Counted from the first letter of the stretch, positions 39,863-55,481 are shown. The stretch: DNA of 64,000 bases from Pseudomonadota bacterium (GCA_043825875.1 JBDRRF010000035.1:1-64000), one strand, 5' to 3'. Translations and numbers: made by a program. The notes: generated from the sequence alone by a model not told the origin.

Positions 39863-41275
39863 ATGCTTATGAATAAAAAAAACTTTAATATACTTGTTGT
39901 TGATGATGAAGAAAGCATGAGAGAATTGCTGGATGTAATTTTGTCAAGGGAGGGATACAATATTACATCAGCAGGAAGTGGGGGCAAGGCAATCTCCTGG
40001 CTTGGAAAAAAAGATTTTGATCTTCTCCTTTGCGATATCAGGCTGGGGGATATGACAGGAATTGATGTCCTCAAGGCAGCAAAGATGAAAGATCCTAATT
40101 CTGTTGTTATCATGATTTCTGCCTATGCTTCTGCTGAAACAGCGATTGAAGCCATGAACAGCGGGGCATATGACTATGTTCCTAAACCTTTCAACAATGA
40201 GGAGCTTAAACTTACCATTGCTAACGCTCTTGAATTAAAGACCATAGAGCAGGAAAAGAAATATATTGATAATGAACTTAAAAAACAGCTTCATTTCGGG
40301 AAAATAATAGGAAACAGTCCCGCCATGATGCATGTTTACAATCTTATAAAGCAGGTTGGAAAAACTAAAACCAGCGTACTTATCACAGGCGAAAGCGGAA
40401 CCGGCAAGGAACTTATAGCAAAGGCCATCCGTGATGAAAGCAATCGCCGTGACAAGCCTTTTGTTGTGATAAACTGTGCCGGTATTCCTGAAACATTAAT
40501 GGAGAGCGAGCTTTTCGGGCATAAGAAAGGGGCTTTCACGGGAGCGGCATATGATAAGAAAGGGCTTTTTGAGCTTGCCGATAAAGGGACCGTTTTTTTA
40601 GATGAGATAGGTGAGCTTAGCATACATCTCCAGGTAAAACTTCTAAGGGTTGTCCAGGAAAGAGTATTTAAACCTGTTGGAGGTATTGAAGATGTTGCAG
40701 TTGATATAAGGATAATATCTGCAACGAATAAAGATCTTACAAGCGAAGTAATAGAAGAGCGTTTCAGGGAAGATCTTTTCTACAGATTAAATGTTATAGA
40801 GATAAAATTGCCTCCTTTAAGAGAGAGAAAAAGCGATATTCGTGCTCTTGCCCAGCATTTTCTTGAAAAGTATTCCAATGAAATGGGAAAGGAGGTTACG
40901 AAATTATCTTCTTATGCTATAGATCTTTTAAATAAATATGAATTTCCCGGAAATATCCGGGAGCTTGAGAATTTAATGGAAAGAAGTGTAGCCATTAGTG
41001 ATACAAATATTCTTCTTCCTGAAAGTCTTTCTATTTCTATGCATAAGAGAAGACGCTTTGTTGAAGGAGTTAAAGGGCGAAGATTTGATTTAAACGATGT
41101 TGAAAACGGTGTTGCTCTTGATGTAATACTTGAAGATCTTGAAAAAGCTTATGTAAAGAAGGCATTGGAATGTTCAGGCGGTGATAAGATAAAATCTGCT
41201 GAATTACTAGGGATAAACATAAGATCAATGAGATATCGTCTTGAAAAACACCACCTAGACAGTAAAGGTGAATAA
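39863..41275 (+). CDS. Sigma-54-dependent response regulator (NtrC/PilR-like)
   Basis: Receiver domain (VVDDE, LCDIR, KPF), GESGTGKE, GAFTGA, FREDLFYRLNV, C-terminal HTH. Confidence 0.93.
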   Translation: MLMNKKNFNILVVDDEESMRELLDVILSREGYNITSAGSGGKAISWLGKKDFDLLLCDIRLGDMTGIDVLKAAKMKDPNSVVIMISAYASAETAIEAMNSGAYDYVPKPFNNEELKLTIANALELKTIEQEKKYIDNELKKQLHFGKIIGNSPAMMHVYNLIKQVGKTKTSVLITGESGTGKELIAKAIRDESNRRDKPFVVINCAGIPETLMESELFGHKKGAFTGAAYDKKGLFELADKGTVFLDEIGELSIHLQVKLLRVVQERVFKPVGGIEDVAVDIRIISATNKDLTSEVIEERFREDLFYRLNVIEIKLPPLRERKSDIRALAQHFLEKYSNEMGKEVTKLSSYAIDLLNKYEFPGNIRELENLMERSVAISDTNILLPESLSISMHKRRRFVEGVKGRRFDLNDVENGVALDVILEDLEKAYVKKALECSGGDKIKSAELLGINIRSMRYRLEKHHLDSKGE

Positions 41276-42017: not shown

Positions 42018-42053
42018 TGTCTATCATATGACATTCATGTCATATGATAGACA
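42018..42053. promoter_or_regulatory. Perfect 17-bp-arm palindrome, probable operator over a promoter
   Basis: TGTCTATCATATGACAT-TC-ATGTCATATGATAGACA, just downstream of TTGACA (42004-42009). Confidence 0.65.
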
Positions 42054-42210: not shown

Positions 42211-43815
42211 TTGGAAAATTCCGAGATTGATATGCTATCAGAGGATTGGTCGGATGATAGGATGGAAAGTATTATCCGACTCTGGGAAGTTTTGCGAACT
42301 ATCGGAACATTAGATAAAAAGTTTAAATTTATAACCGATGCCGTTAATGATGTTATTAAAACCGAATTTACAACACTTTGGATTGTCAAAGAAGGGGACA
42401 GATGTAATTCAGGTTGTACTTTTTCAGAAAAGTTATCTGGGAACATAACTTGCGAAGGCAATATTGAATGTCTTCACCTTACAGCAAGTTCCGGTGGCTA
42501 TAGTAACTTTAATACAGATCTAAACAGGATACCATTAAGCCATTTTAAAGCAGGAAATTTTTTAATAACTAATAGTCACGATTCTTTAATAAATAGGATT
42601 ATTAAAGATTTATTTATACATAATGAAAACTGTGCAAACGGACTTGGCATAAAATCTGTTGCCGGATTCAAACTTTTTTCGGAATCTGACAATGTAATAG
42701 GTGTACTTGCCGTGTTCAGCAAACAAATTATAAGTAATGCTGATATTGTTCATATCGAATGCTTCTCCAATTTGGCAGCTCAGGTTATAAAAAATTCTCA
42801 ACTGGAAGATTCACTGATAAAATATCGTGAACACCTCGAGGGACTCATAAAAGTACGTACCGATGATCTGATGGAAACCAACCGGAAATTACAAAAGATT
42901 GTCAAGGAAAAAGCCCATATTGAAAAATCTCTTATAGAAAGCGAAAAAAGGTTTCGCAGCTTTCTCGATAATTCATATGATGTTATTTACTTTATGAATT
43001 TTAAAACATCAAAATTCGAATATCTAAGCCCGTCTTCCAAAAAAATAACCGGTTATACTCCCGAAGAAATCATATATTTGCAGGAAAGCGGAAATTTTGA
43101 CTTCCTTCATCCTGAAGAGGAAGATAATGTCCATGAATTCTTTAAACAGCTGAACATTCGTCCGGATGAGGATGATATTAACAGAACCATAACCTTCAGA
43201 ATGAAACACAAAACAAATGGCCACCGCTGGGTCAGCACCACGCGTTCCGTTATTTTTGATGAAAATGGAGAACCGGCAGCTATTGTTGGTAATCTTAGAG
43301 ATATTACCGATATAAAAAATGCTGAAGAACAAGAAAAGAAAATGAAAGATAATCTTGAAAACATGGTTCAGGAGCGCACAGTTGAACTTGAGAAGAACAA
43401 CACAGCCTTAGAAGTACTTTTAAAAAAGCGGGAAATGGATAAAACTAAGCTTGAAGAAAAACTGATTTTTAATATTAAGCAATTAATTGTTCCGTATCTT
43501 GAAAGATTAAATAATACTACATTAGATAATTATCAGGAGAATTTGATACATATTATTGAAGCGAACTTAAATGACATTCTTACTCCGCTTATTCCGTTTG
43601 TTTCTCCTTCTCAGATTGACCTGACACCTTCGGAAATTCAGGTTGCAAGCCTTATAAAGCTGGGAAAAACCACCAAGGAGATAGCAAACACTTTACACCT
43701 GGCTATGAGCACAATCCATTTCCACAGAGATAATATAAGAAATAAAATCGGAATTAAAAACAAAAAGGTTAATCTTAGAAGCTATCTTTTATCTTCGGAA
43801 CAAAACATATGGTGA
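42211..43815 (+). CDS. GAF-like/PAS/LuxR-HTH transcriptional regulator
   Basis: PAS ([33 protein letters not shown]), Lux[36 protein letters not shown]; start may be ATG 42232. Confidence 0.9.
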
Positions 43816-43842
43816 GTTTTCATAATTTTTTTATCTGTTGCC

Positions 43843-45228
43843 CTATCTGTTGTCGACGATTCTTCTTTTCTGCTGCCTGCCCCCTCTTCTTAAAATACCC
43901 GCTTCTACAAACTGAATTTCGGGATTTCCCATAAGACCTTTTTCCATATTTTTCTTAATAGACGGTACGGAATTTATGCAGCCGATGATCCTGGCTGTTA
44001 AATCATCCTGATTTTTCAGTACCTCAACACAGCATTTAATATGATCCAGGCCGTCTTTTCTGGTGATAAATATTCTGTAATCTATGAGCTCAGAAATGGC
44101 GTATAATCTGTCATCAAAAAGAGATGTATATATTTTATCGTCTTCTCCGATATTGACAATCAGTGCTTTTCTTCTTGGGATTTCACCGATTCTAAGCAAA
44201 GTACAAGCACCACATTCACAGGGACTTCGGATAAGCCGGGCAAGATCTCCTGTACGATAGCGAATCAAAGGCATGCCAATACGATTTAAAGTAGTAAAAA
44301 CCAGCTCTCCTTCCTCTTCTTCATTATTTATCGGCTCACCTGTTTTAAAATCTACTATTTCAAAATAAAGATCACATTCATTAAAATGGTATCCCTTGTG
44401 TGCTGTGCATTCTATACCGATAGCAAAGCCAGGTTCTGTCATTCCGTAATGATGGTATACTTTTGCATTCCAAGCTTTTTCTAAAGCCTTCCGCATGGCA
44501 GGGGAAAGATATTCGGAGGTGATAAAAACGAATTTTACGCCAATATCGGCCAGATCAAAAACAGACTCGGATTCTTTTGTCATGCGCCATATGCGAAAGG
44601 CTGATCCCATGATCATATCCGGTTTAAATGCTTTTATGCTTTCAATCTGAGATGGGGTAGGGCTGTCGCACTGACCGATTAACGGAATTCCGTTAAGATT
44701 TTTTACTCCTTTTGCAATCATTCCGGCCATGCTAAGCGGAGGAGAATTATCGGGCAAAAATATCTGAACTTTGCATCCGTCAAAACAATATTGATCGTTT
44801 CCGTCCGAAACAACAGTGTGCATTATTGCTGCCATGGATTCTATGATTGCATCTGCATCCTGCTGTGTGAAAAATATTTTTTTGGGTTTTCCGGTAGTAC
44901 CTGTTGTAAAATGACTGTATATCCTGTCAATTTTTCCCAATGAAACACAAAGGAGCTTATAAGGGCTGTTTCTTAAATCATCGGGTTCGGTAAAAGGAAG
45001 ATGTCTGATACTTTCAAGAGAATCAATTTTGGCGATTTTATCTTTAAGAGATTTATAAAATACACTGTTATCGGCAGCATAGCAAAGTGTCTTTATAAGC
45101 CTGTCAAGCTGATACTGCTCAATATCCTTGCGGGTAATGCAGTCTGGGTTTTGACCGAATTGTTTTCGTGAGCAGTTTTTATTAAAAAACTCTTTAATTT
45201 TGTTATGAATCCATTTTTCCAGGATCAT
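43843..45228 (-). CDS. Phenylacetate-CoA ligase (PaaK)-like AMP-dependent CoA ligase (DVU_1553-like)
   Basis: LPFTEPDDL, FTTGTTGKPKKIFFT, HYGMTE, GELVFTTL, PLIRYRTGD. Confidence 0.88.
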   Translation of the reverse strand: MILEKWIHNKIKEFFNKNCSRKQFGQNPDCITRKDIEQYQLDRLIKTLCYAADNSVFYKSLKDKIAKIDSLESIRHLPFTEPDDLRNSPYKLLCVSLGKIDRIYSHFTTGTTGKPKKIFFTQQDADAIIESMAAIMHTVVSDGNDQYCFDGCKVQIFLPDNSPPLSMAGMIAKGVKNLNGIPLIGQCDSPTPSQIESIKAFKPDMIMGSAFRIWRMTKESESVFDLADIGVKFVFITSEYLSPAMRKALEKAWNAKVYHHYGMTEPGFAIGIECTAHKGYHFNECDLYFEIVDFKTGEPINNEEEEGELVFTTLNRIGMPLIRYRTGDLARLIRSPCECGACTLLRIGEIPRRKALIVNIGEDDKIYTSLFDDRLYAISELIDYRIFITRKDGLDHIKCCVEVLKNQDDLTARIIGCINSVPSIKKNMEKGLMGNPEIQFVEAGILRRGGRQQKRRIVDNR

Positions 45229-45246
45229 TTTGCTTTTTTATCTCTT

Positions 45247-46392
45247 TTAATTATTTATTCTTTTACCTATCGGCCCAAGCTTGTCATTTCGTGATGGCAG
45301 TATAATAGTCGATTTTGCAGGCATAACATCGTCACCTCTTTGATTAATAGCTTTTGATACTATATCAACACAGCATTCTTTCTTATCATCTATATATTTA
45401 TCTGTAACATAGCCGGAAATTCTGATGGCATCCGAAAGATAAACCAGCCTCTTAAATCTTGCATGGCTGCTTTTTATCCAGCCATTATCACCCATCCAGT
45501 TTGTCAGAAAATGGATAAGCCAGCAATGCCTTTGAACAGCCGTATCATAAGGATAAGGCAAACCGCATTCATTGGCTGCATCAATATTATAATGTACACT
45601 AAAAACCGGTTCCATAGCTGATGTTTTGCTGTCTCTAAATGCCCAGGCCGGATGTTTGCGATAAGTTTTAAGAGCTAATCCATGAGCCTGTAATGGAACC
45701 GGCGAAGCGCCAATGCAAAAGGATATAATATCAGTTATCCCCAAAGGGCCTTTTATGATTTCGGGTAATACTTTGCCTTTGTCAACATCTTCATAATAAA
45801 GCGGCTTTTTACCCCGGTATTTTTCTGCAAGCACATGATCTTCAATTTCTTCCAGTTCCTGTAATGTCCATGGATGAGGCAATTTAATTTTTTTGCCGGA
45901 AACATCTTGTTCATCCGGGCTTCGTTCAACCCTGAATGCAGAAGAGTTGACGCTGGCAACCAAATGGTCATTCTGATTTATAAATTTTACTTCCTGCTGT
46001 TCATAAACGGATTTGCCGTAAAATTGGCTGTTGACCTTTTTGCATCCTGTCAAAAAACATTGAGGGCTGATCCGGTCATTTACTAGTACGGGTTTGTAGT
46101 ATTGCCAGTCTACACTTGTTTGTAAAGCATGCACTCCCGGCAAACCCTGCAATACCCATGTAGGAAGAACGCTGTTAAGCCATGATGGCGGAGCCGGAAG
46201 TGTTTTATAAGAAGTTGAATCGGCATAATTTATATCTCTCCACAAAATATTGGGATCGCCTATGCCGTCGGCAAACTTTTTAATCGCATCTTCTGTGGCG
46301 ACACTGTTAAATTGATAGTTAACACGAAGTTGTTTTCCTACCCGGATTCTCATTTCTTCAAACGCTGCATCCGTAATCTTACTCTTTTCCAT
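45247..46392 (-). CDS. Tandem MaoC/hot-dog fold acyl-CoA dehydratase/hydratase-like protein
   Basis: DAIKKFADGIGDPNILW..APPS, YYEDV..LP..KGP, VHYN..A..GLPYPYD, TNWMGD. Confidence 0.8.
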   Translation of the reverse strand: MEKSKITDAAFEEMRIRVGKQLRVNYQFNSVATEDAIKKFADGIGDPNILWRDINYADSTSYKTLPAPPSWLNSVLPTWVLQGLPGVHALQTSVDWQYYKPVLVNDRISPQCFLTGCKKVNSQFYGKSVYEQQEVKFINQNDHLVASVNSSAFRVERSPDEQDVSGKKIKLPHPWTLQELEEIEDHVLAEKYRGKKPLYYEDVDKGKVLPEIIKGPLGITDIISFCIGASPVPLQAHGLALKTYRKHPAWAFRDSKTSAMEPVFSVHYNIDAANECGLPYPYDTAVQRHCWLIHFLTNWMGDNGWIKSSHARFKRLVYLSDAIRISGYVTDKYIDDKKECCVDIVSKAINQRGDDVMPAKSTIILPSRNDKLGPIGKRINN

Positions 46393-46406
46393 ACACTCAT
46401 TTATCC

Positions 46407-47801
46407 TTAATAATTGCTAAGTCTATGCTGTATTTTGTTGTGCAGACTGTCACCATGCGAGCCGGTCAAATAGTAACTGCAAAAAGGAATCAGCCGCTTA
46501 TCTGTTGTTATTACGTGGATGCAGCAACCCTTAAGTCTTTTAAGATCAATTGTCCAGGCATCCATAAAAGGCATCCCCGATATGGATAAATAGTGTGTTT
46601 GAATCCGTTCGTGAAAATTATTGAAAGGTCCGTTTGGGGTTTTGCATGAACATTGTTTTGTTGCAGGTTCTATAAATCTGGCTTTTTCAGTGATAAAACG
46701 ACGCACATGAGCAGTCGGGCTTTCTTTCTTTTGGGCTTGCATACGGTTTGTTTTGTTTTCAATTAGAGTGGAATTGTCAGGATGAAAACGGGTAGTCGTC
46801 TGTAGTTTGCCCTTATCATTTAAGATATAAAATCCTGAAAAGCCGCAATGAGAATCCATTTTTCTGCGTGGCTGGAAATCATTAACCTTGATTTCGCCAT
46901 GGGTTTGGATTTCAAGCAATCGTAATATTTCAGGAGTAGTAATTCTACTCTCATTTGACGGGCTGAAGTTATAGCGACCGGAATAGGTAACAGGCTGGAA
47001 ATGAATTCCTTTAATAACCGGCATATATTTTTTTGCAAAAAAAAGGATATCGCCCAGTTGAGAGTCGTTTATCTTCGGAATTACAGTAGGAACCAGTTGA
47101 ACTCCAAGCCTGATTTCAGAACAGTTTTCAACCGCTTTAATCTTTATATCAAAAAGGTTTGTTCCTCTTATTTTTTGGTAAATATCATCTGTCACTCCAT
47201 CAAATTGAAGATAAATCAAATCAGCCCCGGCATCTTTTAAAGCCTTTAAATAAACTTTATCTTCAGCAATCCTTATGCCGTTAGTATTAATCTGGATGTG
47301 GCCCAATCCAACGTCTTTTGCCATATGGACAATTTCAGGAAGATCATCTCTTACAGTCGGTTCTCCGCCACTTAACTGGATAGGACAGTTTCCGGCAGCA
47401 GCCACAACTGCTTCACACATTTCTTTAAGCTGTTTAATTTCGGGAGTATTTGATGATGATTGCCTGTCTCCGGCAAAACATACGGGGCAGGAAAGGTTAC
47501 ACTTATCTGTTACTTCCATTAAAACAGTACAGGTATCCGACTGGTGCTCCGGGCATATCCCGCAATCTTTCGGGCATCCCGATACTGTTTTTGTCTGTGT
47601 CTTTTGAGAAGGTTGAGATAATTCTCCGTAGCCCCATTCTTCATATGTTGGATCACCTCTCCAGATTACGGTTTTAAATTCGCCATGATCGGGGCAGGTT
47701 TTTTTTAGAAAGATATCTTCACCTTCTAAAATCTTTAAAGCAGGTATAACAGCAAGGCAAAGGGGACAAACACTTGTTGTCTCGCCTATATTTTTAGGCA
47801 T
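46407..47801 (-). CDS. trsS: Radical SAM protein, TrsS (DVU_1554)/tetraether-synthase-like architecture, Cys form
   Basis: CPLC..CPDHG, CPKDCGICPEH, CNLSCPVC, LSGGEPT, NTNG, YLQFDG, HFQP, FMDAWTIDLKRLKGCCIHV..IPFC. Confidence 0.8.
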   Translation of the reverse strand: MPKNIGETTSVCPLCLAVIPALKILEGEDIFLKKTCPDHGEFKTVIWRGDPTYEEWGYGELSQPSQKTQTKTVSGCPKDCGICPEHQSDTCTVLMEVTDKCNLSCPVCFAGDRQSSSNTPEIKQLKEMCEAVVAAAGNCPIQLSGGEPTVRDDLPEIVHMAKDVGLGHIQINTNGIRIAEDKVYLKALKDAGADLIYLQFDGVTDDIYQKIRGTNLFDIKIKAVENCSEIRLGVQLVPTVIPKINDSQLGDILFFAKKYMPVIKGIHFQPVTYSGRYNFSPSNESRITTPEILRLLEIQTHGEIKVNDFQPRRKMDSHCGFSGFYILNDKGKLQTTTRFHPDNSTLIENKTNRMQAQKKESPTAHVRRFITEKARFIEPATKQCSCKTPNGPFNNFHERIQTHYLSISGMPFMDAWTIDLKRLKGCCIHVITTDKRLIPFCSYYLTGSHGDSLHNKIQHRLSNY

Positions 47802-47810
47802 TTTACTATC

Positions 47811-48590
47811 CTATAATGGTTTACGGAAAGAAAATACAGCATATCCCGGTTTGCATTCTGTAAAAAATCTTTTCCACTCAATTTGAGTATCAGTACTGTT
47901 TTTGCCGGTTGAACAGCAGGAAATACTTCTGCCTGCAAAATGCTTCCAGAAATCATCCAATGAACCATAGCCTGAGATTAATCTGTAAGCGATTTTTTTT
48001 AATTCAATAGAATGATCTTCAAACAGTTCATTTTCAAATCCCTCTTTACAAAATACTTCGATGTATCCGGCTTTTGTCAATGCCCCGGTAAAGCAACAAT
48101 TAAAAAGAACCTCATCTTTTAAATCGGAGCTTAATGGATGATTTAAGATAACATCCGACATCGAGAATCTTCCGCCCGGTTTAAGAATCCGAAAAATCTC
48201 TTTTGCAACACGCATTTTATCAGTAAACAGAGAAAAAGCACATTCCATAATAACCGCATCAAAAACCGAGTTGGAAAACGGCAATGATTCGGCATCGGCT
48301 AAACAAAATTCTGCTTTATTAGAAAGCGACAACTTTTGGGCTTTTTGCCTGGCAAGAGATGATGATTCAAGCGATAAATCTGTGCCTATAACCTGGCAAT
48401 CAAAAAGTTCGGATAAAAAGCAAGCGCTTGATCCTCTGCCGGATGCGATATCTAATACCAGATCTCCATTTTGAATACCGGCTGATTCGGCGGTTTTCTT
48501 TGTGAGTTCCAATCCGCCGGGATGTAATATTTCATCCAAGACCTGATTAAACTCTTTTGCTTCATAGGCTTTAACAATAGAAGATTTCAT
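47811..48590 (-). CDS. Class I SAM-dependent methyltransferase (DVU_1556-like, Cys-rich)
   Basis: LHPGGLELT, VLDIASGRG, DAESLPF..FDAVIMECAFS, RILKPGG, CCFTGA, KPGY. Confidence 0.88.
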   Translation of the reverse strand: MKSSIVKAYEAKEFNQVLDEILHPGGLELTKKTAESAGIQNGDLVLDIASGRGSSACFLSELFDCQVIGTDLSLESSSLARQKAQKLSLSNKAEFCLADAESLPFSNSVFDAVIMECAFSLFTDKMRVAKEIFRILKPGGRFSMSDVILNHPLSSDLKDEVLFNCCFTGALTKAGYIEVFCKEGFENELFEDHSIELKKIAYRLISGYGSLDDFWKHFAGRSISCCSTGKNSTDTQIEWKRFFTECKPGYAVFSFRKPL

Positions 48591-48609
48591 GTAAGCATAG
48601 CTTTAAATT

Positions 48610-48798
48610 TTATCCGAACTTTGCTTCCATTTCGGCTTCGGTTTTGTTCATTTCCATGGCTACTTCTTCAGTTATAAATTTTATCTTACATCCGGGGCAT
48701 TCCAGACCGCTTTGAAAACCAAGCATTTCATAATAAATTAAAGAAAGATCTTTTACTTCCATTGGTTTTTCACATTTACAGCATTGCCAATTTGACAT
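48610..48798 (-). CDS. Small double-CxxC zinc-ribbon/redox protein (DVU_1557-like)
   Basis: WQCCKC..LECPGCKIKFITEE..EAK; GAGGAG RBS. Confidence 0.8.
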   Translation of the reverse strand: MSNWQCCKCEKPMEVKDLSLIYYEMLGFQSGLECPGCKIKFITEEVAMEMNKTEAEMEAKFG

Positions 48799-48801
48799 TT
48801 T

Positions 48802-49080
48802 TCAGCTCTCCTCATCAAAAGCGCTTTTTACACAATACGCAGTATGAATTTTATAGATATCAGCATCTTTTGAATACCTTACAAAATAAAGCGCATTGCC
48901 GATAGTTTTTTTGCCTAAAAATTCATTATTGCCGGTATCACAAAGCTTTTCATTTGTTGTTTCGGAATCATAAATGACCATTTTAAGCTCATCATCCAAA
49001 ATGCCTCTTGATTCCAGCAGTTCCGAAACTTCAGAGCTTTTATTTATATTGATTGTTTCATATCCTTCCGCATTGCTCAT
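48802..49080 (-). CDS. Small protein resembling the C-terminal domain of DVU_1558-like oxidoreductases
   Basis: AGGAG RBS; EVSELLESRGILDDELKMVI..YFVRYS..IHTAY; family match recalled from memory, not searched. Confidence 0.65.
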   Translation of the reverse strand: MSNAEGYETININKSSEVSELLESRGILDDELKMVIYDSETTNEKLCDTGNNEFLGKKTIGNALYFVRYSKDADIYKIHTAYCVKSAFDEES

Positions 49081-49111
49081 TAGTTACTCTCCTTTGTTTA
49101 TCTGCAAGGCT

Positions 49112-51604
49112 TCATGAATAAATCTCAGTAAGCTTTGCCTTTAAATAGGATTGGTTATCTTTTTTGATATTTGCAGGATTGGGCGGCTTTGCCTTATTCT
49201 CATCCCAGTTGGGATTAAACAACAGATCAAGAACATGAATAGTAGGTTTGTGTTGAGCCAGCGCTTCCCTGCATGTAGCACAATAGGTAAGAATATCATG
49301 CTTTGCTTCTTCTACTCTTTTTTTAGTGATTTTTTGGGCCAGATCAAAAGAAGCAAAAGCTATCATACCTCCCATACCGCAGCAAAGGCCGTTTTCTCCA
49401 TGATGTTCCATTTCGATAATACTGTTTCCTGTTTGAGATACCAGTTTGCGTATATTATTATGAGTATCTTTTTTAAATCTTCCGGCGCAAGGATCATGAA
49501 TTGAAAATACGCCTGTTTTATGCCCATCTGATAAAACAATTCCCTCTTCAGCCAGAACATCATATAATGATCTTATTTTAATTCCTGAGGCATCATGCTG
49601 GCTTATAGTTCTAAGACAGTTGGGACATGCCAGAATAAGCTCTTCTGCTCCCATCCGTTTAATTTCATCCGTAAGATCTTTAATCATATTTTGAAATGAT
49701 GCATGATCTCCTAATGAACGGGTTGGGTTTCCGCAGCATTTTAAAATAATGCCCGTATCTTTATCGTTTGATATAAGCCAGTCATAAGCTGAAATTACAG
49801 ATTGCGGCGAATATGCCGACAGATGGCAACCCGGCATGAAAACCCGGCTGCTTTTTCTTTTGTCAGGATTTGGAATGCTTAACATGAACTCATCTGATCT
49901 TACCCAATCCTGATCTTTTATAACAAGCTTGTGCGTTGGAAGCGGGCCTTTGCCGCACTCAACCAGCTCTTGTTTTGCTTCGTTGCACATTTTTCCGATA
50001 TTAAGTCCTTCGGGACATACTTTTTCACAAAGATCGCAAATATTGCAACAATATGGAATCGCCGGTCTTTTAATAAAAGCGCCATCTTTGTATTTATTAA
50101 CAAGATCTTTGGGACTGTCGCAAAAACGATTTAGAAATTCACAATCCGTCATACAGCTTTTGCATTCACAGACAAGGCATCTTTGAGCCTCTTTAATCGC
50201 AGTTTGCTCATCAAAGCCAAGTTCCACTTCATCAAATCCCAATCGCTTGTCAATAGCTGTTTCCGGCATTTTGGATCTTGGGGTTGGTGTTGCATCTTTT
50301 TTAAAAGTTTCTTTTAAAACTTTATATGTCTTTTGTCTTCCTTCATAAAGATCCTGACCGCTTAGATACCTGTCAATTGAAACGGCTGCTTCTTTACCGG
50401 CAGCAATAGCTTTAATAACAGTAGATGCACCTGAAACAACATCACCTCCGGCAAAAACTCCAGTGGTATTTGTCTGCATTGTAATCTCATCAACTGCCAG
50501 AGTCCCCTGCTTGTTTAGTTCAGGCATTATCGGCAGCTTTGATTTATCTACACTTTGACCAATGGCGATTATCACATTATCTGTATCTAAAACAAACTCT
50601 GACCCTTTAATCGGTATGGGACGGGGTCTGCCGCTATCATCTACTTCTCCCGGTTTCATTTCAAGACACTCAACGCCAATACATTTTCCGTTATTTTCTA
50701 TTATTTTAACAGGAGAAACGTGGAAACGGATATTAACGCCTTCAAGCTCAGCCTCCTTGATTTCAAGCGGATCGGCAGGCATTTCATCGCGGGATCGTCT
50801 GTAAATAATGCTTACATTATCCGCTCCAAGCCTTTTGGCTGCTCTGGCGCTGTCAATAGCAGCATTGCCGCCTCCGACAATTATTACCCGTTTCCCAAGA
50901 TTAATTTTTTCACCATTATTAACAGCTTCCAGAAAATCAAGTGCAGAAAACACACCGCTGCTGTTTACTCCTTGCAATCCGGCATTTACAGAAGTTTTCG
51001 CCCCAACTCCCATAAATACGGCATCATAATTTTCATTGACAAGTAAATTCTCCAGACTGAGAATCGGCTGGCTGGTTTTTATCTCAACTCCCAGTTCTCT
51101 GATGTATTCGATATCATTATCAAGGCAAGTGTCAGGCAATCTGTATGCCGGAATACCATAACGCATAAGCCCGCCTGTTTTCGGCATTGCTTCAAAAATT
51201 GTTACAAAATAACCTTTTCTTATCAAATCGTATGCACAGGAAAGACCTGCCGGTCCGGAACCTATAATTGCAACCTTTTTTTCTTTGGTGATTTTACAGG
51301 GGCTGGCCTTTTCTCTTCCGTTTTGAACTTCATAGTCAGATACAAATCTTTTAAGAGCCCGAATTGCTACAGGTTGATCAATATTATTACGCTCGCATTG
51401 ACTTTCACATGGGTATGTGCAAACTCTTCCGCATACTGCGGGAAAAGGCATGGTTTCTCTGATTACTTCCAGAGATTTATTGAATTCACCTTGTGAGATA
51501 AGGGTTATATATTTTCTTACATCAATATGTGCCGGGCACGCATCCTGACAACGGGGATAAGCATCTCCCCTACAGTTTTCAATTATTTTATCGATCTCTT
51601 TCAT
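49112..51604 (-). CDS. Multidomain FAD/NAD(P)H oxidoreductase: GltD/NfnB-like module + 4Fe-4S dicluster + two CCG domains
   Basis: CQDACPAH, VCGRVCTYPCESQC, IGSGPAG, RYGIP, GGGNAA..YRR, FAGGD, CLVCECKSCMTDC, CNICDLCEKVCP, PGC..CCG..CPNC, HDPC..CCG..CATC. Confidence 0.9.
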   Translation of the reverse strand: MKEIDKIIENCRGDAYPRCQDACPAHIDVRKYITLISQGEFNKSLEVIRETMPFPAVCGRVCTYPCESQCERNNIDQPVAIRALKRFVSDYEVQNGREKASPCKITKEKKVAIIGSGPAGLSCAYDLIRKGYFVTIFEAMPKTGGLMRYGIPAYRLPDTCLDNDIEYIRELGVEIKTSQPILSLENLLVNENYDAVFMGVGAKTSVNAGLQGVNSSGVFSALDFLEAVNNGEKINLGKRVIIVGGGNAAIDSARAAKRLGADNVSIIYRRSRDEMPADPLEIKEAELEGVNIRFHVSPVKIIENNGKCIGVECLEMKPGEVDDSGRPRPIPIKGSEFVLDTDNVIIAIGQSVDKSKLPIMPELNKQGTLAVDEITMQTNTTGVFAGGDVVSGASTVIKAIAAGKEAAVSIDRYLSGQDLYEGRQKTYKVLKETFKKDATPTPRSKMPETAIDKRLGFDEVELGFDEQTAIKEAQRCLVCECKSCMTDCEFLNRFCDSPKDLVNKYKDGAFIKRPAIPYCCNICDLCEKVCPEGLNIGKMCNEAKQELVECGKGPLPTHKLVIKDQDWVRSDEFMLSIPNPDKRKSSRVFMPGCHLSAYSPQSVISAYDWLISNDKDTGIILKCCGNPTRSLGDHASFQNMIKDLTDEIKRMGAEELILACPNCLRTISQHDASGIKIRSLYDVLAEEGIVLSDGHKTGVFSIHDPCAGRFKKDTHNNIRKLVSQTGNSIIEMEHHGENGLCCGMGGMIAFASFDLAQKITKKRVEEAKHDILTYCATCREALAQHKPTIHVLDLLFNPNWDENKAKPPNPANIKKDNQSYLKAKLTEIYS

Positions 51605-52401
51605 GCCACTTCTTCCTGTTTCCGGTTTTTTCCAACATCTACATCAGCTAACAATGCCGCACCCAAAGCTCCAATAATTTGCGGCACCTCAGGCAATACG
51701 ACTTCTTTATCAAGCAATTCCTGAATAAATTTAACAACTCCGCTGTTTTTAGCTACACCTCCTGTAAAAACAATCTTGTCATTATAGCCCACAGATCTTC
51801 CCATTATAATAACCCGCCGTGAAACCGCTTTGTGTAATCCTGCAACCATATCCTCACGATTGGTTCTGTCTGCTCTTAAAGATATAATTTCAGATTCTGC
51901 GAAGATAGTGCATGTGCTGGAGATATTGGACGGACTCACACTCTTAAGTGAGTCAGGCCCCATCTGATCAATTGTAAGATTCAAAACGGAAGCCATAACT
52001 TCTAAAAATCTTCCGGTTCCTGCAGCGCATTTATCATTCATGACAAAACTTTTTACTGTTCCGTTTTCTCTCATACCAATAACTTTGCTGTCCTGGCCTC
52101 CAATGTCAATGATTGTTCGGGCTTCGGGAATTAAAAAGCTGGCTCCTTTGGCATGACAAATAATTTCACTGATGCTTTTATCAGCGAATTTCACACTGTC
52201 TCTGCCATAGCCGGTCGATACAAAACGATCTACATCCTTAAATGTGTACCCGGCTTTTTTAAGTGCTTTTTCCGTTACCTCTTTCGAAGATTCTGTTACA
52301 TAATCTCCTGTGGGGATAACTTCATAAGCCACAAACTCACCATCTTTTAATATGGCTGTTTTAGCTGTAGCAGCCCCGACATCAACACCTACTATTAACA
52401 T
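51601..52401 (-). CDS. ATP-dependent activator of 2-hydroxyacyl-CoA dehydratase (HgdC/HadI/BadFG ASKHA family)
   Basis: GVDVG, TGYGR, EIICHAKG, DIGGQDSK, MNDKCAAGTGRFLE, SSTCTIFAESE, GGVAKN, GALGAA. Confidence 0.95.
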   Translation of the reverse strand: MLIVGVDVGAATAKTAILKDGEFVAYEVIPTGDYVTESSKEVTEKALKKAGYTFKDVDRFVSTGYGRDSVKFADKSISEIICHAKGASFLIPEARTIIDIGGQDSKVIGMRENGTVKSFVMNDKCAAGTGRFLEVMASVLNLTIDQMGPDSLKSVSPSNISSTCTIFAESEIISLRADRTNREDMVAGLHKAVSRRVIIMGRSVGYNDKIVFTGGVAKNSGVVKFIQELLDKEVVLPEVPQIIGALGAALLADVDVGKNRKQEEVA

Positions 52402-52660
52402 GGGTTCTCCTTTTGTGCTGTTTTTATTTCAAACAAATCAGACGATTTATAACATAACGGAGGCTTCCTAAGAATCTGTATCGTATTGAATGTATTTTCT
52501 CATAAATTTTCATTAATGCAAGGTGAGAAAACTATGGGTATAATATGGTGCCTGTCCCCATATATATCCATCTTCAATGTGTTTTAATCGAAGTTTCAAA
52601 AAACCGAAATTTCCAATATTGATCATAGATCATTAACAGCTCTGTTTAATAAAATATAAT

Positions 52661-52677
52661 GTCGGGATTATCCCGAC
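52661..52677. promoter_or_regulatory. Palindrome in the divergent promoter region
   Basis: GTCGGGAT-T-ATCCCGAC, GC-rich in an AT-rich spacer, directly after TATAAT. Confidence 0.5.
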
Positions 52678-52883
52678 TTTTTAACCTCAATTTTCCAATC
52701 TTACTTTTTCCGGCAGTTTGTGTAAAAATCACACTGAAATTTTAGTCTTGGATACTCATTTTTAAAGAAGACGGAAAGCAATCGGCACCGTCTGAGATTG
52801 TAGAATATGTACATTCAATAATAAGCTCATCTGAGCGGATTTGCCGAAAGAACTACAACCAAACTGATAGAAGGAGATAGGAA

Positions 52884-54026
52884 ATGGGAGCGATGGAACG
52901 GCTGAAAGATCATTTGTCGGACAGAGCATCGACATTAAGGAAACTAAAGAAAGACGGTGTCAAAATTGTCGGATACACACCCGGAGGGTTCATGCCTGAA
53001 GAAATTGTCCATGCGGCAGGTGCAATTCCGATTTGTTTGTTAAAAGGCGGCGATGCTGATTCCGTAATCGAAAGTTTAAAGTACAATCCAAGGTTTTTTT
53101 GCACTTTCTGCAAGACCCAGATTGCGTATCTTATGGGCGGCGATCTGGTATATAATCTGCCTGATATTCTCGTTGTTCCACACACAGACTGCAATCACAA
53201 GATAATTGCCGATTCCTGGAACTACTACAGCAAGACGGATGTGTTCCGATATGGGATTCCTCACAATAAAGGAGAATCTGCCCGAACCTATTTTAAAGGA
53301 GGGCTGGAATTGCTGAAGAAAAAGCTTGAAGATCTTACCGGAAACAAAGTTACTGAAGAAAAGCTAGTTGATGAAATACAGATAGGAAACAAAATAAGAA
53401 GTCTTTTTAAAGAAATCAGCTTTGCGCGAAAAACAAACCCGGCTGCAATCAGCAGCAGGGATTTTACAATGCTTCAGCATGCATCCACATTTGCGGACAA
53501 GGATTTTATTCTTCAAACCTTGGAAGCAGTCCGCGATGAAATAAAAGAGAAGCCTACAGCCGACAAAAACCGGAAACGGGTTATGATGATAGCATCTTCT
53601 TTGGCAAACGGCGATAATCTTGTTTTTGATATTATTGAAAATACCGATGCTGATATTGTTTATGAAGAGGTTACGGAAGGATACCGTCCATATCTGGATA
53701 ATGTGGATGTTAACGGAAATGACCCAATACAAAACTTATCCGATATATATTTTGACAAGCGTATACCTGCTCCCTGGGATCGTCCCTGGGGAGACCGCAT
53801 GGAACGGCTTATTGAAAAGGCAAAGGAATTTTCCTGCGGCGGAGTTGTCTGGTATCAGATGATGTACCGTGACGGATTTGATATCCAGGCCCATTATTTT
53901 AGTAAGATGATAGAAGAGCAAGCAGGAATCCCGATGGTCAAGATTGAATCCGATTATGCTCCGGCTGAAAAAGGCCCGGCTCGTACAAGGATTGAGACCT
54001 TGGTTGAAGTAATGAGTGCCAACTAG
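52884..54026 (+). CDS. 2-hydroxyacyl-CoA dehydratase / aryl-CoA reductase family subunit (HgdB/BcrC-like)
   Basis: VGY..PEEIVHAAG, FCTFCK, TDCN, LEDLTGNKVT, GIPMVKIESDY..RTRIET. Confidence 0.85.
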   Translation: MGAMERLKDHLSDRASTLRKLKKDGVKIVGYTPGGFMPEEIVHAAGAIPICLLKGGDADSVIESLKYNPRFFCTFCKTQIAYLMGGDLVYNLPDILVVPHTDCNHKIIADSWNYYSKTDVFRYGIPHNKGESARTYFKGGLELLKKKLEDLTGNKVTEEKLVDEIQIGNKIRSLFKEISFARKTNPAAISSRDFTMLQHASTFADKDFILQTLEAVRDEIKEKPTADKNRKRVMMIASSLANGDNLVFDIIENTDADIVYEEVTEGYRPYLDNVDVNGNDPIQNLSDIYFDKRIPAPWDRPWGDRMERLIEKAKEFSCGGVVWYQMMYRDGFDIQAHYFSKMIEEQAGIPMVKIESDYAPAEKGPARTRIETLVEVMSAN

Positions 54027-54071
54027 AGATTTTAGTTTATCAGATATCAAATCAATATCAGGAGATTTATT

Positions 54072-55481
54072 ATGTATACAAATTTATTCAAACTATGCGG
54101 ATTCAGCGATGAAGAAATCGACGAACAAAAACCAAGGATAGAAAAGACCTTACAAATTATCGGATCAGATACAAAGGAAATGATTGCAAAGGCTGAAAAA
54201 AATGTCCAGGCAAATTTTGATTGCTCTCTTGAAGGCATAAGAATGCTGCTTAAAGTCATGATGAAAGAAGTTATGGATGCTGTCTTGTCTGGTGAAGAAT
54301 ACGAAAAAAGAGTTTATTACAATTGGCCCGGCCTTAGCCCTTTAGCACAGGCTATGATAGTTGCCGGCAGAGGGACAAATGTATACGCATGTCTGGCAAA
54401 ACAATATCTGTGGATGGGACTTGGTAATATCTTTGATACGGTAAATGATCTTCTTGACTTGGGAGAACTTATCGGACAAACCGCAGGAAGAGCACATTGC
54501 CCGGAATACCAAATTTATACAGCCTTGTATGAAAGAAAGATACTTCCTATCCCCACTATAGTTTTGAATTGCGGCTGGTGTTGTGATCAGGGCCCTGAAG
54601 TTGAAGAACTGTGCACAAAGCTATACGGCTATGAGGCTACTTACCTTGATGGAACCAATGACTGGGAATGGGGAAGCTGGCCCAATATGGATAAACGCGC
54701 AATTGAATACAACGCAAGCACAATTAAAGCTTCAATAGCCCGTGTTAAAGAAACAACAGGCCTTGATATTACCGATGATCACATTAAAGCAGCATTGCAG
54801 GAAATAATGCAGATTACAATGGGCTATATGACTCTTATCGGAATGGTGTCAAAGGCTGATCCGCAGCCTATAAGCCAGGCCGATATCGGATTGGTTTTTT
54901 TAATCAAGGGTGCCGGAACACGCTATCCCAAAGATGTAATCAATGGCATTAATATGCTCATTAAGGAAACAAAACAAAAAATTGATGCAGGAGTTGGAGT
55001 AGTGCCCAAAGGTGCTCCAAGGGTATATGTGCAGCTTAGAACACTTGTGGACCAGAAGCCTATGAGAGCCATCGAAGAGCTGGGGCTTGCAATACCGATG
55101 ATGATGGTGGACGGTTACCATCCATATGAAACTCAGCCTACAAATTATCCGAATGATCGATGGATGTCTTTATCCGAGCAGGCATTTCGCAAACCTCAGC
55201 TTAGTTCCGCCGAAGGAAGTCTGCGATACTGGGAATGGTGTGCAAATGATCAGAAAGTAGATGGAGTCATAATGATGTATCCTATATCATGCAGGCCTTT
55301 TTGCAGTCCCACATTTATAGGAAAAGATTATCTGGAAAAAAGCACAGGGCTTCCAACTATTCTGGTTGAAGCGGATGGCTATGATACAAGAAACTACAGC
55401 TCAGGACAGATAAAGACACGAATTGAATCATTTGCCGAAATTTTAAAAGCCAACAAAAAGATAGCTGCCGGAACTCTTTGA
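54072..55481 (+). CDS. 2-hydroxyacyl-CoA dehydratase / aryl-CoA reductase family subunit (HgdA/BcrB-like) with N-terminal extension
   Basis: AHCP, CCDQ, VDGVI..SCRP, GLPTILVEADGYDTR..QIKTRIESFAEIL. Confidence 0.82.
   Translation: MYTNLFKLCGFSDEEIDEQKPRIEKTLQIIGSDTKEMIAKAEKNVQANFDCSLEGIRMLLKVMMKEVMDAVLSGEEYEKRVYYNWPGLSPLAQAMIVAGRGTNVYACLAKQYLWMGLGNIFDTVNDLLDLGELIGQTAGRAHCPEYQIYTALYERKILPIPTIVLNCGWCCDQGPEVEELCTKLYGYEATYLDGTNDWEWGSWPNMDKRAIEYNASTIKASIARVKETTGLDITDDHIKAALQEIMQITMGYMTLIGMVSKADPQPISQADIGLVFLIKGAGTRYPKDVINGINMLIKETKQKIDAGVGVVPKGAPRVYVQLRTLVDQKPMRAIEELGLAIPMMMVDGYHPYETQPTNYPNDRWMSLSEQAFRKPQLSSAEGSLRYWEWCANDQKVDGVIMMYPISCRPFCSPTFIGKDYLEKSTGLPTILVEADGYDTRNYSSGQIKTRIESFAEILKANKKIAAGTL

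Follow-up and report, generated by a model that had tools for sequence, protein, structure and literature searches.

The window analysed here, 64,000 nucleotides of contig C35 from a Pseudomonadota groundwater genome (GCA_043825875.1, JBDRRF010000035.1:1-64000; genome size 4.77 Mb in 118 contigs), carries eleven intact open reading frames (ORFs) between positions 42211 and 55481. This locus is a second copy of the cassette built around the radical S-adenosylmethionine (SAM) enzyme TrsS. The molybdenum (Mo) aldehyde oxidoreductase and the C-GCAxxG-C-C protein of the canonical cassette are replaced in it by a pair of HGD-D family proteins (here X1 and X2) with an ATP-dependent activase, a double hot-dog hydratase and an NAD(P)H/FAD oxidoreductase. 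That the locus is a real, recurrent and functional variant is very probable, and we put the probability that it is a functional, selected second copy of the cassette working in an acyl-CoA radical pathway at roughly 55%. The canonical neighbourhood (DVU_1553-DVU_1559) is credited to Haft and Tolstoy (2025, mSystems) in the table of a review that lists it (PMC13188914), and is represented by the NCBIfam models NF045645, NF045646, NF045663 and NF045666-NF045669. That cluster is itself catalogued but uncharacterised: a full-text literature search returned no functional study of TrsS or of DVU_1553-1559, with passing mentions of DVU1554, DVU1555, DVU1558 and DVU1559. The same search found no characterised pathway matching the locus, which the initial annotation had put forward as a candidate undescribed system.

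Eight of the genes lie on the minus strand, tightly packed with intergenic gaps of 3-31 nt. In order of increasing coordinates they encode a PaaK-like adenylating enzyme of the DVU_1553 'CoA ligase' family (43843..45228, 461 aa), a double hot-dog MaoC-like candidate enoyl-CoA hydratase/dehydratase (45247..46392, 381 aa), TrsS (46407..47801, 464 aa), a SAM methyltransferase of the DVU_1556 family (47811..48590, 259 aa), a DVU_1557-like Zn-ribbon/CxxC protein (48610..48798, 62 aa), a 92-aa protein (48802..49080), an oxidoreductase of 830 aa (49112..51604) and an activase, or 'archerase', of the HgdC/BcrAD type (51601..52401, 266 aa). The activase stop codon and the oxidoreductase start codon overlap as ATGA, as read directly in the sequence. 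The X1 gene (52884..54026, plus strand, 380 aa) and the X2 gene (54072..55481, plus strand, 469 aa) diverge from the operon across a 482-bp spacer (52402..52883), and the gene of a PAS/LuxR-type regulator (42211..43815, plus strand, 534 aa) converges with the ligase gene. This layout, together with the pyr and waa genes that flank it, is as the initial annotation had described it.

The operon can be assigned to the DVU_1553-1558/TrsS families, as four of its five core proteins score above the NCBIfam cut-offs (scores are given here and below as bits/curated cut-off). TrsS reached 553/490 with NF045646 over profile positions 2-440 of 441 and also matched PF23545 and PF04055; no in-frame TGA was found in its gene. 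The oxidoreductase (NF045663, 548/530), the ligase (NF045666, 305/300) and the methyltransferase (NF045667, 162/155) passed by narrow margins, and the 62-aa protein fell below its NCBIfam model (NF045645, 32.8/60) and passed the Pfam family DUF7479 (PF24292, 40.5/27). The activase, too, was well placed (TIGR00241, 288/125). The core families had been named in the initial annotation, which proposed hidden Markov model searches of Pfam and NCBIfam; these searches bore out four core families and the activase, and the 62-aa protein through DUF7479 only. The gene order oxidoreductase, small protein, methyltransferase, TrsS, ligase is, as stated there, that of DVU_1558-1553, and it is also the order of a cluster on contig C76 of the same genome. 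The ligase carries the Pfam domains AMP-binding and AMP-binding_C_2 and scored 149-179 bits with PaaK models, far under their cut-offs.

TrsS also matched the model of Tes (GDGT-MAS, NF045702), an enzyme that joins unactivated methyl groups by C-C coupling. The two share an N-terminal Zn-ribbon/rubredoxin-like domain and the radical SAM core, with 367 bits over positions 2-308 of the 486 in the Tes profile. However, this score lies under the cut-off of 450, the C-terminal half differs, and TrsS of the window belongs to a soluble redox/ligase operon and not to a lipid context.

When the TrsS model was run against the whole genome, a second protein exceeded the cut-off, on contig C76 (661 bits). 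It is part of a complete canonical cluster (C76:17490-27420; locus L009:8488-18421) with the Mo aldehyde oxidoreductase (NF045668, 1679/1100), a full-length NF045663 oxidoreductase (1041/530), DVU_1557 (90/60), the methyltransferase (217/155), the DVU_1555-type C-GCAxxG-C-C protein (NF045669, 175/103), the ligase (462/300) and TrsS. Because the genome also has this cluster, the window locus is a diverged paralog, a second system and not a replacement or the remnant of a sole copy; the two TrsS proteins are 41% and the two ligases 32% identical. Neither a Mo aldehyde oxidoreductase nor a DVU_1555 homolog was found on the contig stretch of the window, in agreement with the initial annotation. 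The TrsS-type module that it described as rewired to an ATP-activated dehydratase/reductase exists in this genome beside a complete Mo-linked cluster. Compared with the canonical neighbourhood, the window retains the five core families in the same order, the invariant residues of the small protein and the C-terminal domain of the oxidoreductase, here split off as a separate gene. In contrast, it lacks the Mo enzyme and the C-GCAxxG-C-C protein, has a TrsS of the sister clade and an oxidoreductase with a full NAD(P)H module, adds the activase, the HGD-D pair and the MaoC-like hydratase, and encodes a small protein with two residues after the otherwise C-terminal Lys. No XdhC or NTP-transferase gene was seen in the 20 kb around the C76 cluster, which is followed by a FlxJ-like methyltransferase gene and three unassigned ORFs (475, 168 and 183 aa) and preceded by the gene of a GGDEF protein. 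Elsewhere in the genome, two tandem Tes/TrsS-like radical SAM genes (C109:86498-89252, L010) scored 256 and 185 bits, under the TrsS cut-off; they form very long branches in the tree described below, and further radical SAM genes lie 7-9 kb away.

To place the window's TrsS we built a FastTree phylogeny of 87 TrsS-like proteins (94 were extracted and 7 fragments shorter than 380 aa dropped; loci L147 and L149, discussed below, are outside the tree). The window protein fell into a clade of 19 rows (support 94), none of which had a Mo enzyme or DVU_1555 as neighbour. The sister clade of 34 rows (support 100) showed neighbourhoods of the Mo/DVU_1555 type wherever the contig was long enough. Within the variant clade the window grouped with L061, L059, L062 and L067 (support 99), next to L069. 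TrsS above the cut-off was present in 40 of 401 genomes of the phylum; among 13 sampled genomes of the window's own order there was no match with TrsS, MaoC or X2. Nineteen TrsS loci were read in the phylum sample (the window, C76, L059, L147, L149 and 14 others): a Mo enzyme was present at eight (C76 and seven more) and absent from eleven, HGD-D/activase genes were present at three (the window, L147 and L149) and MaoC at two (the window and L059). The best 80 metagenome loci from an alignment of variant TrsS, where many contigs are short and absences are weak evidence, comprised 29 with Mo or DVU_1555 genes, 18 with the core only, two with HGD-D/activase, one with MaoC, and 30 with a radical SAM gene alone, mostly 35-37% identical and Tes-like. 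The TrsS cassette is not an accessory of the Mo aldehyde oxidoreductase alone, and the clade of the window, sister to the canonical one, works without the Mo enzyme. The idea of a portable core serving different partners, put forward in the initial annotation, fits the range of contexts found: Mo/DVU_1555, core alone, HGD-D/activase and MaoC. A separate cassette in four genomes (L154-L156 and L167, in G151, G182, G212 and G084) combines a DVU_1555-like C-GCAxxG-C-C protein, a domain of the 92-aa type, a methyltransferase, a variant-clade TrsS (42-51% identity) and a ligase; Mo enzyme, CCG protein and HGD-D genes were not detected there.

The arrangement of the window was found again at several distances. 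A contig of a metagenome-assembled genome (MAG) named 'Proteobacteria bacterium' (L061) repeats the layout with all eleven genes, their proteins being 87-100% identical to those of the window, and contigs from three further groundwater runs cover the locus; together with L061 these represent one lineage. Compared with L061, all 11 genes gave dN/dS values of 0.01-0.31, and the whole 11-gene arrangement is under purifying selection. Two genomes of another family in the same phylum have related operons. In G118 (L147) the order is X2-X2-activase (56% identity)-58 aa-CCG/dicluster protein-91 aa-DUF7479-methyltransferase-TrsS (52%), followed by two more methyltransferases, all co-directional. In G371 (L149) the co-directional order is X2-X1 (46%)-X2-64 aa-activase (55%)-92 aa-DUF7479-methyltransferase-TrsS (53%)-ligase (43%), with a convergent CCG protein gene at the end of the operon. 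The metagenome contig L095 has two TrsS-like radical SAM genes, a ligase, a DUF5714 protein, an activase (47%) and an HGD-D gene, again co-directional. The link between HGD-D/activase genes and TrsS thus recurs: it is present in two families at least, and once more on a distinct metagenome contig. The initial annotation had asked whether TrsS-like genes keep company with HGD-D and activase genes in other genomes; they do so in L061, the three groundwater runs, L147 and L149, so that neither outcome it had named as refuting, absence of the combination from every other genome or identity with a characterised pathway, came about.

Parts of the arrangement also occur separately. TrsS adjoins MaoC and no HGD-D gene in G321 (L059), in a Coriobacteriales MAG (L062) and in L097. 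The TrsS homolog of L062 (L062:1461-2813, 47% identity) has one in-frame stop and is followed by genes for a CobW/HypB-like GTPase, a MaoC-like protein (42%) and a LuxR-type regulator; selenocysteine was considered for this stop and rejected, the codon not being TGA, which points to a break or an error. Sets of X1, X2 and activase occur apart from TrsS in L150, L151, L152 (X1 not detected) and L153. A cluster in G315 (L049) shares with the window two HGD-D genes, activases (two), a PaaK-like ligase and a MaoC-like protein (46%); however, it has no TrsS core, and its HGD-D proteins, 26% identical to X1, are of a different subfamily. DUF5714 proteins are encoded at L095:6152-6745 and L094:14475-15239, both loci in which two TrsS-like radical SAM genes are paired with a ligase; in L094 a SIR2 gene stands between the ligase and the second radical SAM gene, and an NMT1-type ABC transporter is present.

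The genome itself holds a close relative of the regulator-X1-X2 genes. On contig C41 (C41:79342-94821, L143) a PAS regulator that is 75% identical and N-terminally shorter is directly upstream of X1' (88%) and X2' (81%). These are followed by a Mo enzyme resembling 4-hydroxybenzoyl-CoA reductase (beta, gamma and two alpha subunits; scores of about 575-600 bits, where the cut-off is 995), and further on by an HdrD-like CCG protein, a phytoene-desaturase-like FAD enzyme and an MFS transporter. This is an uncharacterised combination of HGD-D proteins and a Mo-hydroxylase; neither activase nor TrsS genes were found in the C41 stretch. X1X2 are thus not bound to the TrsS core, since X1'X2' occur without TrsS. 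A third pair of the X1/X2 type (C116:32502-35146, L144) is 42% and 35% identical, with no activase or TrsS among its annotated neighbours. The regulator, X1 and X2 genes of the window are all on the plus strand, contiguous in the C41 paralog, and a groundwater contig of run X4 (aligned at 85% likeness) joins position 43781 to 52870, the paralog-type arrangement. We infer that the eight-gene operon sits inside a regulator-X1-X2 unit, which would explain both the convergent regulator and the divergent partner subunits.

The same observations could be taken to mean that two independent units were juxtaposed by rearrangement, with regulator-X1-X2 a self-contained catabolic unit into which the eight-gene operon inserted between regulator and X1, the activase serving X1X2 only and the TrsS core unrelated to either. 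The contiguity in C41 and the X4 junction are what this would predict, and the region does rearrange: in L061 the canonical TrsS-ligase pair directly adjoins X2, at the place taken by waa genes in the window. In G118, moreover, the closest homologs of the window's MaoC-like protein (61%) and ligase (59%) are encoded on contig C37 (L060:9775-13732), directly downstream of a phage-type integrase gene and with a DUF772 transposase nearby, and the rest of the cassette is on contig C33; this separation suggests recent rearrangement or mobility. Chance juxtaposition is nevertheless improbable in our view. The activase gene lies inside the TrsS operon and overlaps the oxidoreductase gene; HGD-D, activase and TrsS genes are co-directional with short gaps in L147, L149 and L095, whose proteins are 37-56% identical to those of the window; and the arrangement is under purifying selection.

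The oxidoreductase differs from its canonical counterpart. Its residues 14-533 form a full GltD-like Fe-S/FAD/NAD(P)H module (PRK12771, 518/516), and the match to NF045663 runs over residues 356-827, covering profile positions 201-663 only. Fused to this module are a 2x[4Fe-4S] dicluster domain and two CCG (HdrD-like) domains; the Pfam domains are Fer4_20, Pyr_redox_2, Pyr_redox and two CCG. A stretch of about 200 aa (roughly 175-382) is lacking from the canonical 762-aa protein. The additional NAD(P)H domain of the oxidoreductase thus occurs at the locus that has no Mo enzyme. Other variant loci have a CCG/dicluster protein with no flavin module (416, 362 and 380 aa).

The 92-aa ORF matches positions 673-752 of the NF045663 profile, which the 830-aa protein covers up to 663, and is the split-off C-terminal 'AYSHRM' domain of the canonical oxidoreductase. 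In canonical clusters this domain is fused to the oxidoreductase and ends in the conserved AYSHRM motif, which in an alignment with the fused domains reads AYCVK in the window and in L061. The ORF has its own ribosome-binding site, AAAGGAGAG, and a frame different from that of the oxidoreductase gene. It is a real gene and not a product of sequencing error, because the split recurs in L061, L064, L081, L147 and L149. The initial annotation was right to count it as a gene of the operon; it is no orphan but a domain of the oxidoreductase family. A predicted model of the domain (pLDDT 87.4) returned no match at E<=0.001 in a fold search. A toxin fold of the RelE/HigB/BrnT type was considered for it and dropped, the best rows (E 0.012-0.06, TM 0.36-0.55) being too weak.

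In the 62-aa protein, C6, C34, C37, E44 and K60 are invariant among 31 sequences. The invariant Lys is the last residue of the canonical small protein (...LEDK), and the window's subclade has two residues more. The protein is predicted to dock on the 92-aa domain: the modelled complex scored 0.72, against 0.01 for the best control, a mark that 116 of 157 solved complexes attain, as do 2 of 215 mismatched pairs. The input alignments had 25 and 31 rows, the runs shared at least 94% of contacts, and partner pLDDT was at least 81. The predicted contact places the motif strand (residues 80 and 82-89 of the 92-aa domain) on residues 44-54 of the small protein.

These features could also belong to a service module, in which the TrsS core would not act on the X1X2 substrate and would instead make, mature or recycle a cofactor, prosthetic group or redox carrier, or tap local low-potential electrons. 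The electrons would come from aldehyde oxidation by the Mo enzyme in canonical clusters and from the ATP-driven activase/X1X2 system in the window. Such a role would account for the unlike partners with which the core travels, in the metagenome counts above and likewise in genomes; those partner families all handle low-potential electrons. It would also fit the translational coupling of the activase gene to the oxidoreductase gene and not to X1X2, the shift of flavin and NAD(P)H content of the oxidoreductase with the partner, and the predicted docking of the Zn-ribbon protein on an oxidoreductase-derived domain. However, a ligase and, within the window's subclade, an enoyl-CoA hydratase inside the core operon fit a substrate pathway better than an electron wire, and X1'X2' of C41 and the stand-alone X1-X2-activase sets need no such module. 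We know of no candidate cofactor for it either, and regard a service role as unlikely, though a serious contender.

The docking prediction would take on another meaning if the TrsS core were a protein-tethered radical machine, which we find rather improbable. We take the 62-aa Zn-ribbon protein to be analogous to LysW for this purpose: with its invariant Lys near the C-terminus, it might be a LysW-like carrier that docks on the AYSHRM domain and is loaded by the ligase. TrsS, as a relative of the lipid-joining enzyme Tes, might then attack an unactivated carbon of the acyl group, whether tethered or bound to CoA, to form a C-C or C-S/Se bond there, and the product might be capped by the methyltransferase. 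The machine would accept any source of very low-potential electrons, here supplied by the ATP-driven archerase enzyme. If this were true, radical SAM and ketyl-radical enzymes would act in one pathway on one substrate, a new anaerobic route of C-H functionalisation for organic acids.

Returning to the acyl-CoA pathway that we prefer, we consider its proposed low-potential enzyme. The partner of the activase would be X1X2, because the activase is closest to those adjoining X2 homologs: identity is 52-56% with the activases that accompany X2 homologs in L147 and L149-L152, and at most 45% with its paralogs in the same genome (at least eight). X1 (beta-type subunit, PF06050, 219 bits) and X2 (candidate alpha-type, catalytic subunit, PF06050, 102 bits) had no equivalog-level match to any characterised HadB/C, BzdN/O or BcrB/C enzyme. 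X1 scored 181/350 with the double-cubane model NF040772, 112/700 with HadC, 84/454 with BzdN and 78/421 with BcrC. X2 gave 58 bits with the double-cubane model and at most 28 bits with the models of the characterised enzymes (HadB/C, BzdN/O, BcrB/C). The best solved relatives of X1 are the double-cubane cluster protein DCCP (6eno and 7yyl, 88 bits), then HadC and BzdN; X2 matched in the PDB only the C-terminal half of DCCP, at 35 bits.

DCCP carries the seven-Cys motif CX19CX18-19CX29CX166-170CX32-34CX32C (PMC7317905). Aligned to 7yyl, X1 lacks the three C-domain cysteines of the DCCP/BzdN double-cubane motif. For X2, all 17 of 17 homologs keep C143 and C171, and 14 of 17 have C407, which aligns with the last Cys of the DCCP motif. 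Compared by pattern, this two-plus-one arrangement resembles that of BzdO, in which Cys95, Cys128 and Cys380 are given as ligands of the catalytic [4Fe-4S] cluster (PMC11971306). Because X1 has no double-cubane electron store, X1X2 would resemble a dehydratase with a single recycled electron more closely than a ring reductase working with two.

The pair thus shares with HadBC-HadI, HgdAB-HgdC and BzdNOPQ the association of two PF06050 proteins with an ASKHA-type activase, a CoA-ester context and an alpha-like subunit whose conserved three-Cys pattern resembles theirs, and with the dehydratases among them a beta-like subunit lacking the double-cubane motif. In contrast to these systems, the window proteins score far under every equivalog cut-off, the nearest solved relative of X2 is the half-DCCP match, the activase is in another operon and coupled to an HdrD-like flavoprotein, and a PaaK-like ligase takes the place of a CoA-transferase. 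From DCCP with its partner DCCP-R (6eno, 7yyl), the best solved relative of X1 and likewise a two-component system for ATP-driven electron transfer, the window differs in lacking the seven-Cys motif, in its sub-threshold score and in being heteromeric (X1 and X2) where DCCP is homodimeric.

The X2 subfamily is rare, with 44 clusters at E<=1e-20 among 5.8 billion proteins, all under generic names, and homologs in 16 of 401 phylum genomes. Genes next to X2 homologs encode family III CoA-transferases, ADP-forming CoA ligases, a glycyl radical enzyme and B12 mutases, as well as acyl-CoA dehydrogenase, short-chain dehydrogenases/reductases (SDRs), a reductase of the old yellow enzyme type and many Peripla_BP_6 binding proteins.

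The MaoC-like protein points in the same direction. It had been annotated as a tandem MaoC, and the MaoC call is upheld by PF13452 (35 bits) and the predicted double hot-dog fold, the MaoC_dehydratas family PF01575 staying under its cut-off (20/27). The AlphaFold model (pLDDT 87.4, pTM 0.89) matched 4v12 in Foldseek at E 4.7e-21, and also 5i7n, 4e3e, 8hgn and 8khg; mesaconyl-CoA hydratase MeaC and itaconyl-CoA hydratase PaIch are among the top matches. A search of PDB sequences gave no match at E<=0.01. The family consensus is GDxNPLW, with an invariant His267 in the second half; presumably the hydratase-2 motif has its catalytic His where this consensus has Trp, so that the protein does not reproduce that motif. 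In all nine annotated loci (L045 omitted), the gene next to the MaoC homolog encodes an AMP-forming CoA ligase or a CoA-transferase, and the surroundings include TRAP/Tct transporters and genes for 2-hydroxyacid dehydrogenase, SDR, LarA-like and AcnX proteins. The contexts of the MaoC and X2 relatives point to CoA-ester metabolism, and the neighbours of related genes point to CoA esters of (aryl)alkanoic or dicarboxylic acids as a possible substrate class. Two other clusters with MaoC-family homologs (48-49% identity; L044:5008-7693 and L046:12347-15020) combine them with a TctA transporter, DUF6282, a split UGSC-family pair (92 aa and about 455 aa), a CoA ligase, SDR, LarA-like and 2-hydroxyacid dehydrogenase genes, and are another uncharacterised acid-CoA pathway.

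The methyltransferase and X1 could instead be seen as signs of metalloid or chalcogen chemistry, with a core that handles arsenic, selenium, tellurium or a thiol/selenol: ArsM-like methylation, formation of C-S, C-Se or C-As bonds by TrsS, (hetero)disulfide reduction by the CCG domains, and X1X2 as a DCCP-like ATP-driven inorganic reductase. The second-best family of the methyltransferase is an arsenite methyltransferase subfamily model (113/263), and two of its cysteines are conserved among 28 aligned family members (Cys117 in 25, Cys166 in 22), which may be equivalent to the As-binding cysteines of ArsM. X1, as said, has DCCP as its best solved relative. The cited review table lists TrsS as a selenoprotein family (PMC13188914), and DCCP is described as reducing small molecules (PMC7317905). 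Against this, X1 fails the double-cubane tests in both score and C-domain cysteines, relatives of X2 and MaoC adjoin CoA-ester enzymes, and Pfam and NCBIfam assignments of the locus proteins revealed no ars, selenium or tellurium genes. The likeness of the methyltransferase to ArsM was likewise set aside, as ArsM structures were weak, non-top PDB matches (47 bits, compared with 63 for a generic methyltransferase). We consider metalloid chemistry highly improbable.

The regulator matched PAS_3 (50 bits) and GerE (46.5 bits), in keeping with the PAS and LuxR parts of its annotation; the GAF domain also annotated is unconfirmed, since the N-terminal 240 aa have no family match beyond a weak GAF_2 (E 0.041, 14.5 bits, cut-off 28.6). 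Besides the C41 paralog, a 43%-identical relative precedes the HGD-D genes in G118. The divergent spacer is about 93% identical to that of L061. It contains the best sigma-70-like match of the region (52633-52660, plus strand, TTAACA-16-TATAAT), directly followed by a perfect 17-bp palindrome, GTCGGGAT-T-ATCCCGAC (52661-52677), and then a T-run. The palindrome occurs once in the genome, and L061 preserves its arms. Roles as operator or as bidirectional terminator are conceivable; counts of promoters and terminators in the region were not above those in shuffled sequences. A 10-mer, CTTTTTCCGG, is shared by the divergent spacer and the stretches preceding the regulator gene and its C41 paralog. 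It was dropped as a regulatory motif, being altered in L061, and we claim no operator there. About 160 bp upstream of the regulator gene (42018-42053) there is a perfect inverted repeat with a 16-bp stem, TGTCTATCATATGACA-TTCA-TGTCATATGATAGACA.

Taken as parts of one pathway, the proteins suggest the following sequence of steps, which we offer tentatively and hold to be somewhat doubtful in its details. Activation of an acid, radical dehydration or reduction, methylation and radical SAM chemistry, or alternatively maturation of a cofactor for the dehydratase, had been suggested in the initial annotation and are likewise tentative. The PaaK-like ligase would first convert an organic acid into its CoA thioester. 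Electrons would pass from NAD(P)H through the FAD and Fe-S centres of the oxidoreductase to the activase, where ATP would drive a single low-potential electron into X1X2. X2 would then carry out ketyl-radical chemistry on the acyl-CoA at a putative three-Cys [4Fe-4S] site, and elimination of an alpha-hydroxyl would be likelier than two-electron ring reduction because of the missing double-cubane store in X1. The resulting enoyl-CoA would be hydrated or dehydrated by the MaoC-like enzyme. The same carbon skeleton, or a tethered version of it, would be the substrate of the core: TrsS would functionalise an unactivated C-H bond, the methyltransferase would add a methyl group, and the Zn-ribbon protein, on the 92-aa domain, would tie these two enzymes to the CCG/Fe-S oxidoreductase. 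Expression would be controlled by the PAS-LuxR regulator as part of the X1X2 unit.

Several observations weigh against placing the locus in such a pathway. Every catalytic step is assigned from family membership, and the ligase and the methyltransferase clear their family cut-offs by small margins. The family of the ligase includes amide-forming enzymes (BagE/FevW and DdaG, weak matches), and for this reason its CoA product is uncertain. The cysteines of X1 vary and are poorly kept among its relatives. As for the association itself, X1'X2' of C41 have neither TrsS genes nor an adjacent activase, both HGD-D genes of the G118 operon are X2-like, and MaoC is not constant, the G371 operon having none. 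The divergent HGD-D pair of L094 is absent from its near-identical relative L092, and most variant TrsS loci have no HGD-D or activase genes nearby (these are present at 3/19 phylum loci and 2/80 metagenome loci). The tree that separates the variant clade was built with FastTree only and leaves out L147 and L149.

Outside the locus, one flank has pyrB and a dihydroorotase-like gene, and the gene of a sigma-54-dependent response regulator (39863-41275) separates these pyr genes from the locus; on the other side are two GT9 heptosyltransferase genes and WaaA. Metatranscriptome X16 contained two pieces only, of about 35 nt each and with less than 95% likeness to the stretch.

The TrsS cassette is widespread in anaerobes and named in NCBI annotation models, and in one lineage a single operon couples it to an ATP-driven enzyme of the benzoyl-CoA reductase/2-hydroxyacyl-CoA dehydratase family. 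The locus offers several handles on this chemistry: a ligase for substrate screening, a rare HGD-D subfamily, a predicted docking pair, and the presence of both systems in one genome for comparison. If the core is a service module, the locus would be a lead to a new cofactor or a new way of supplying low-potential enzymes with electrons. If the two radical systems share one substrate, they would constitute a new type of anaerobic pathway.

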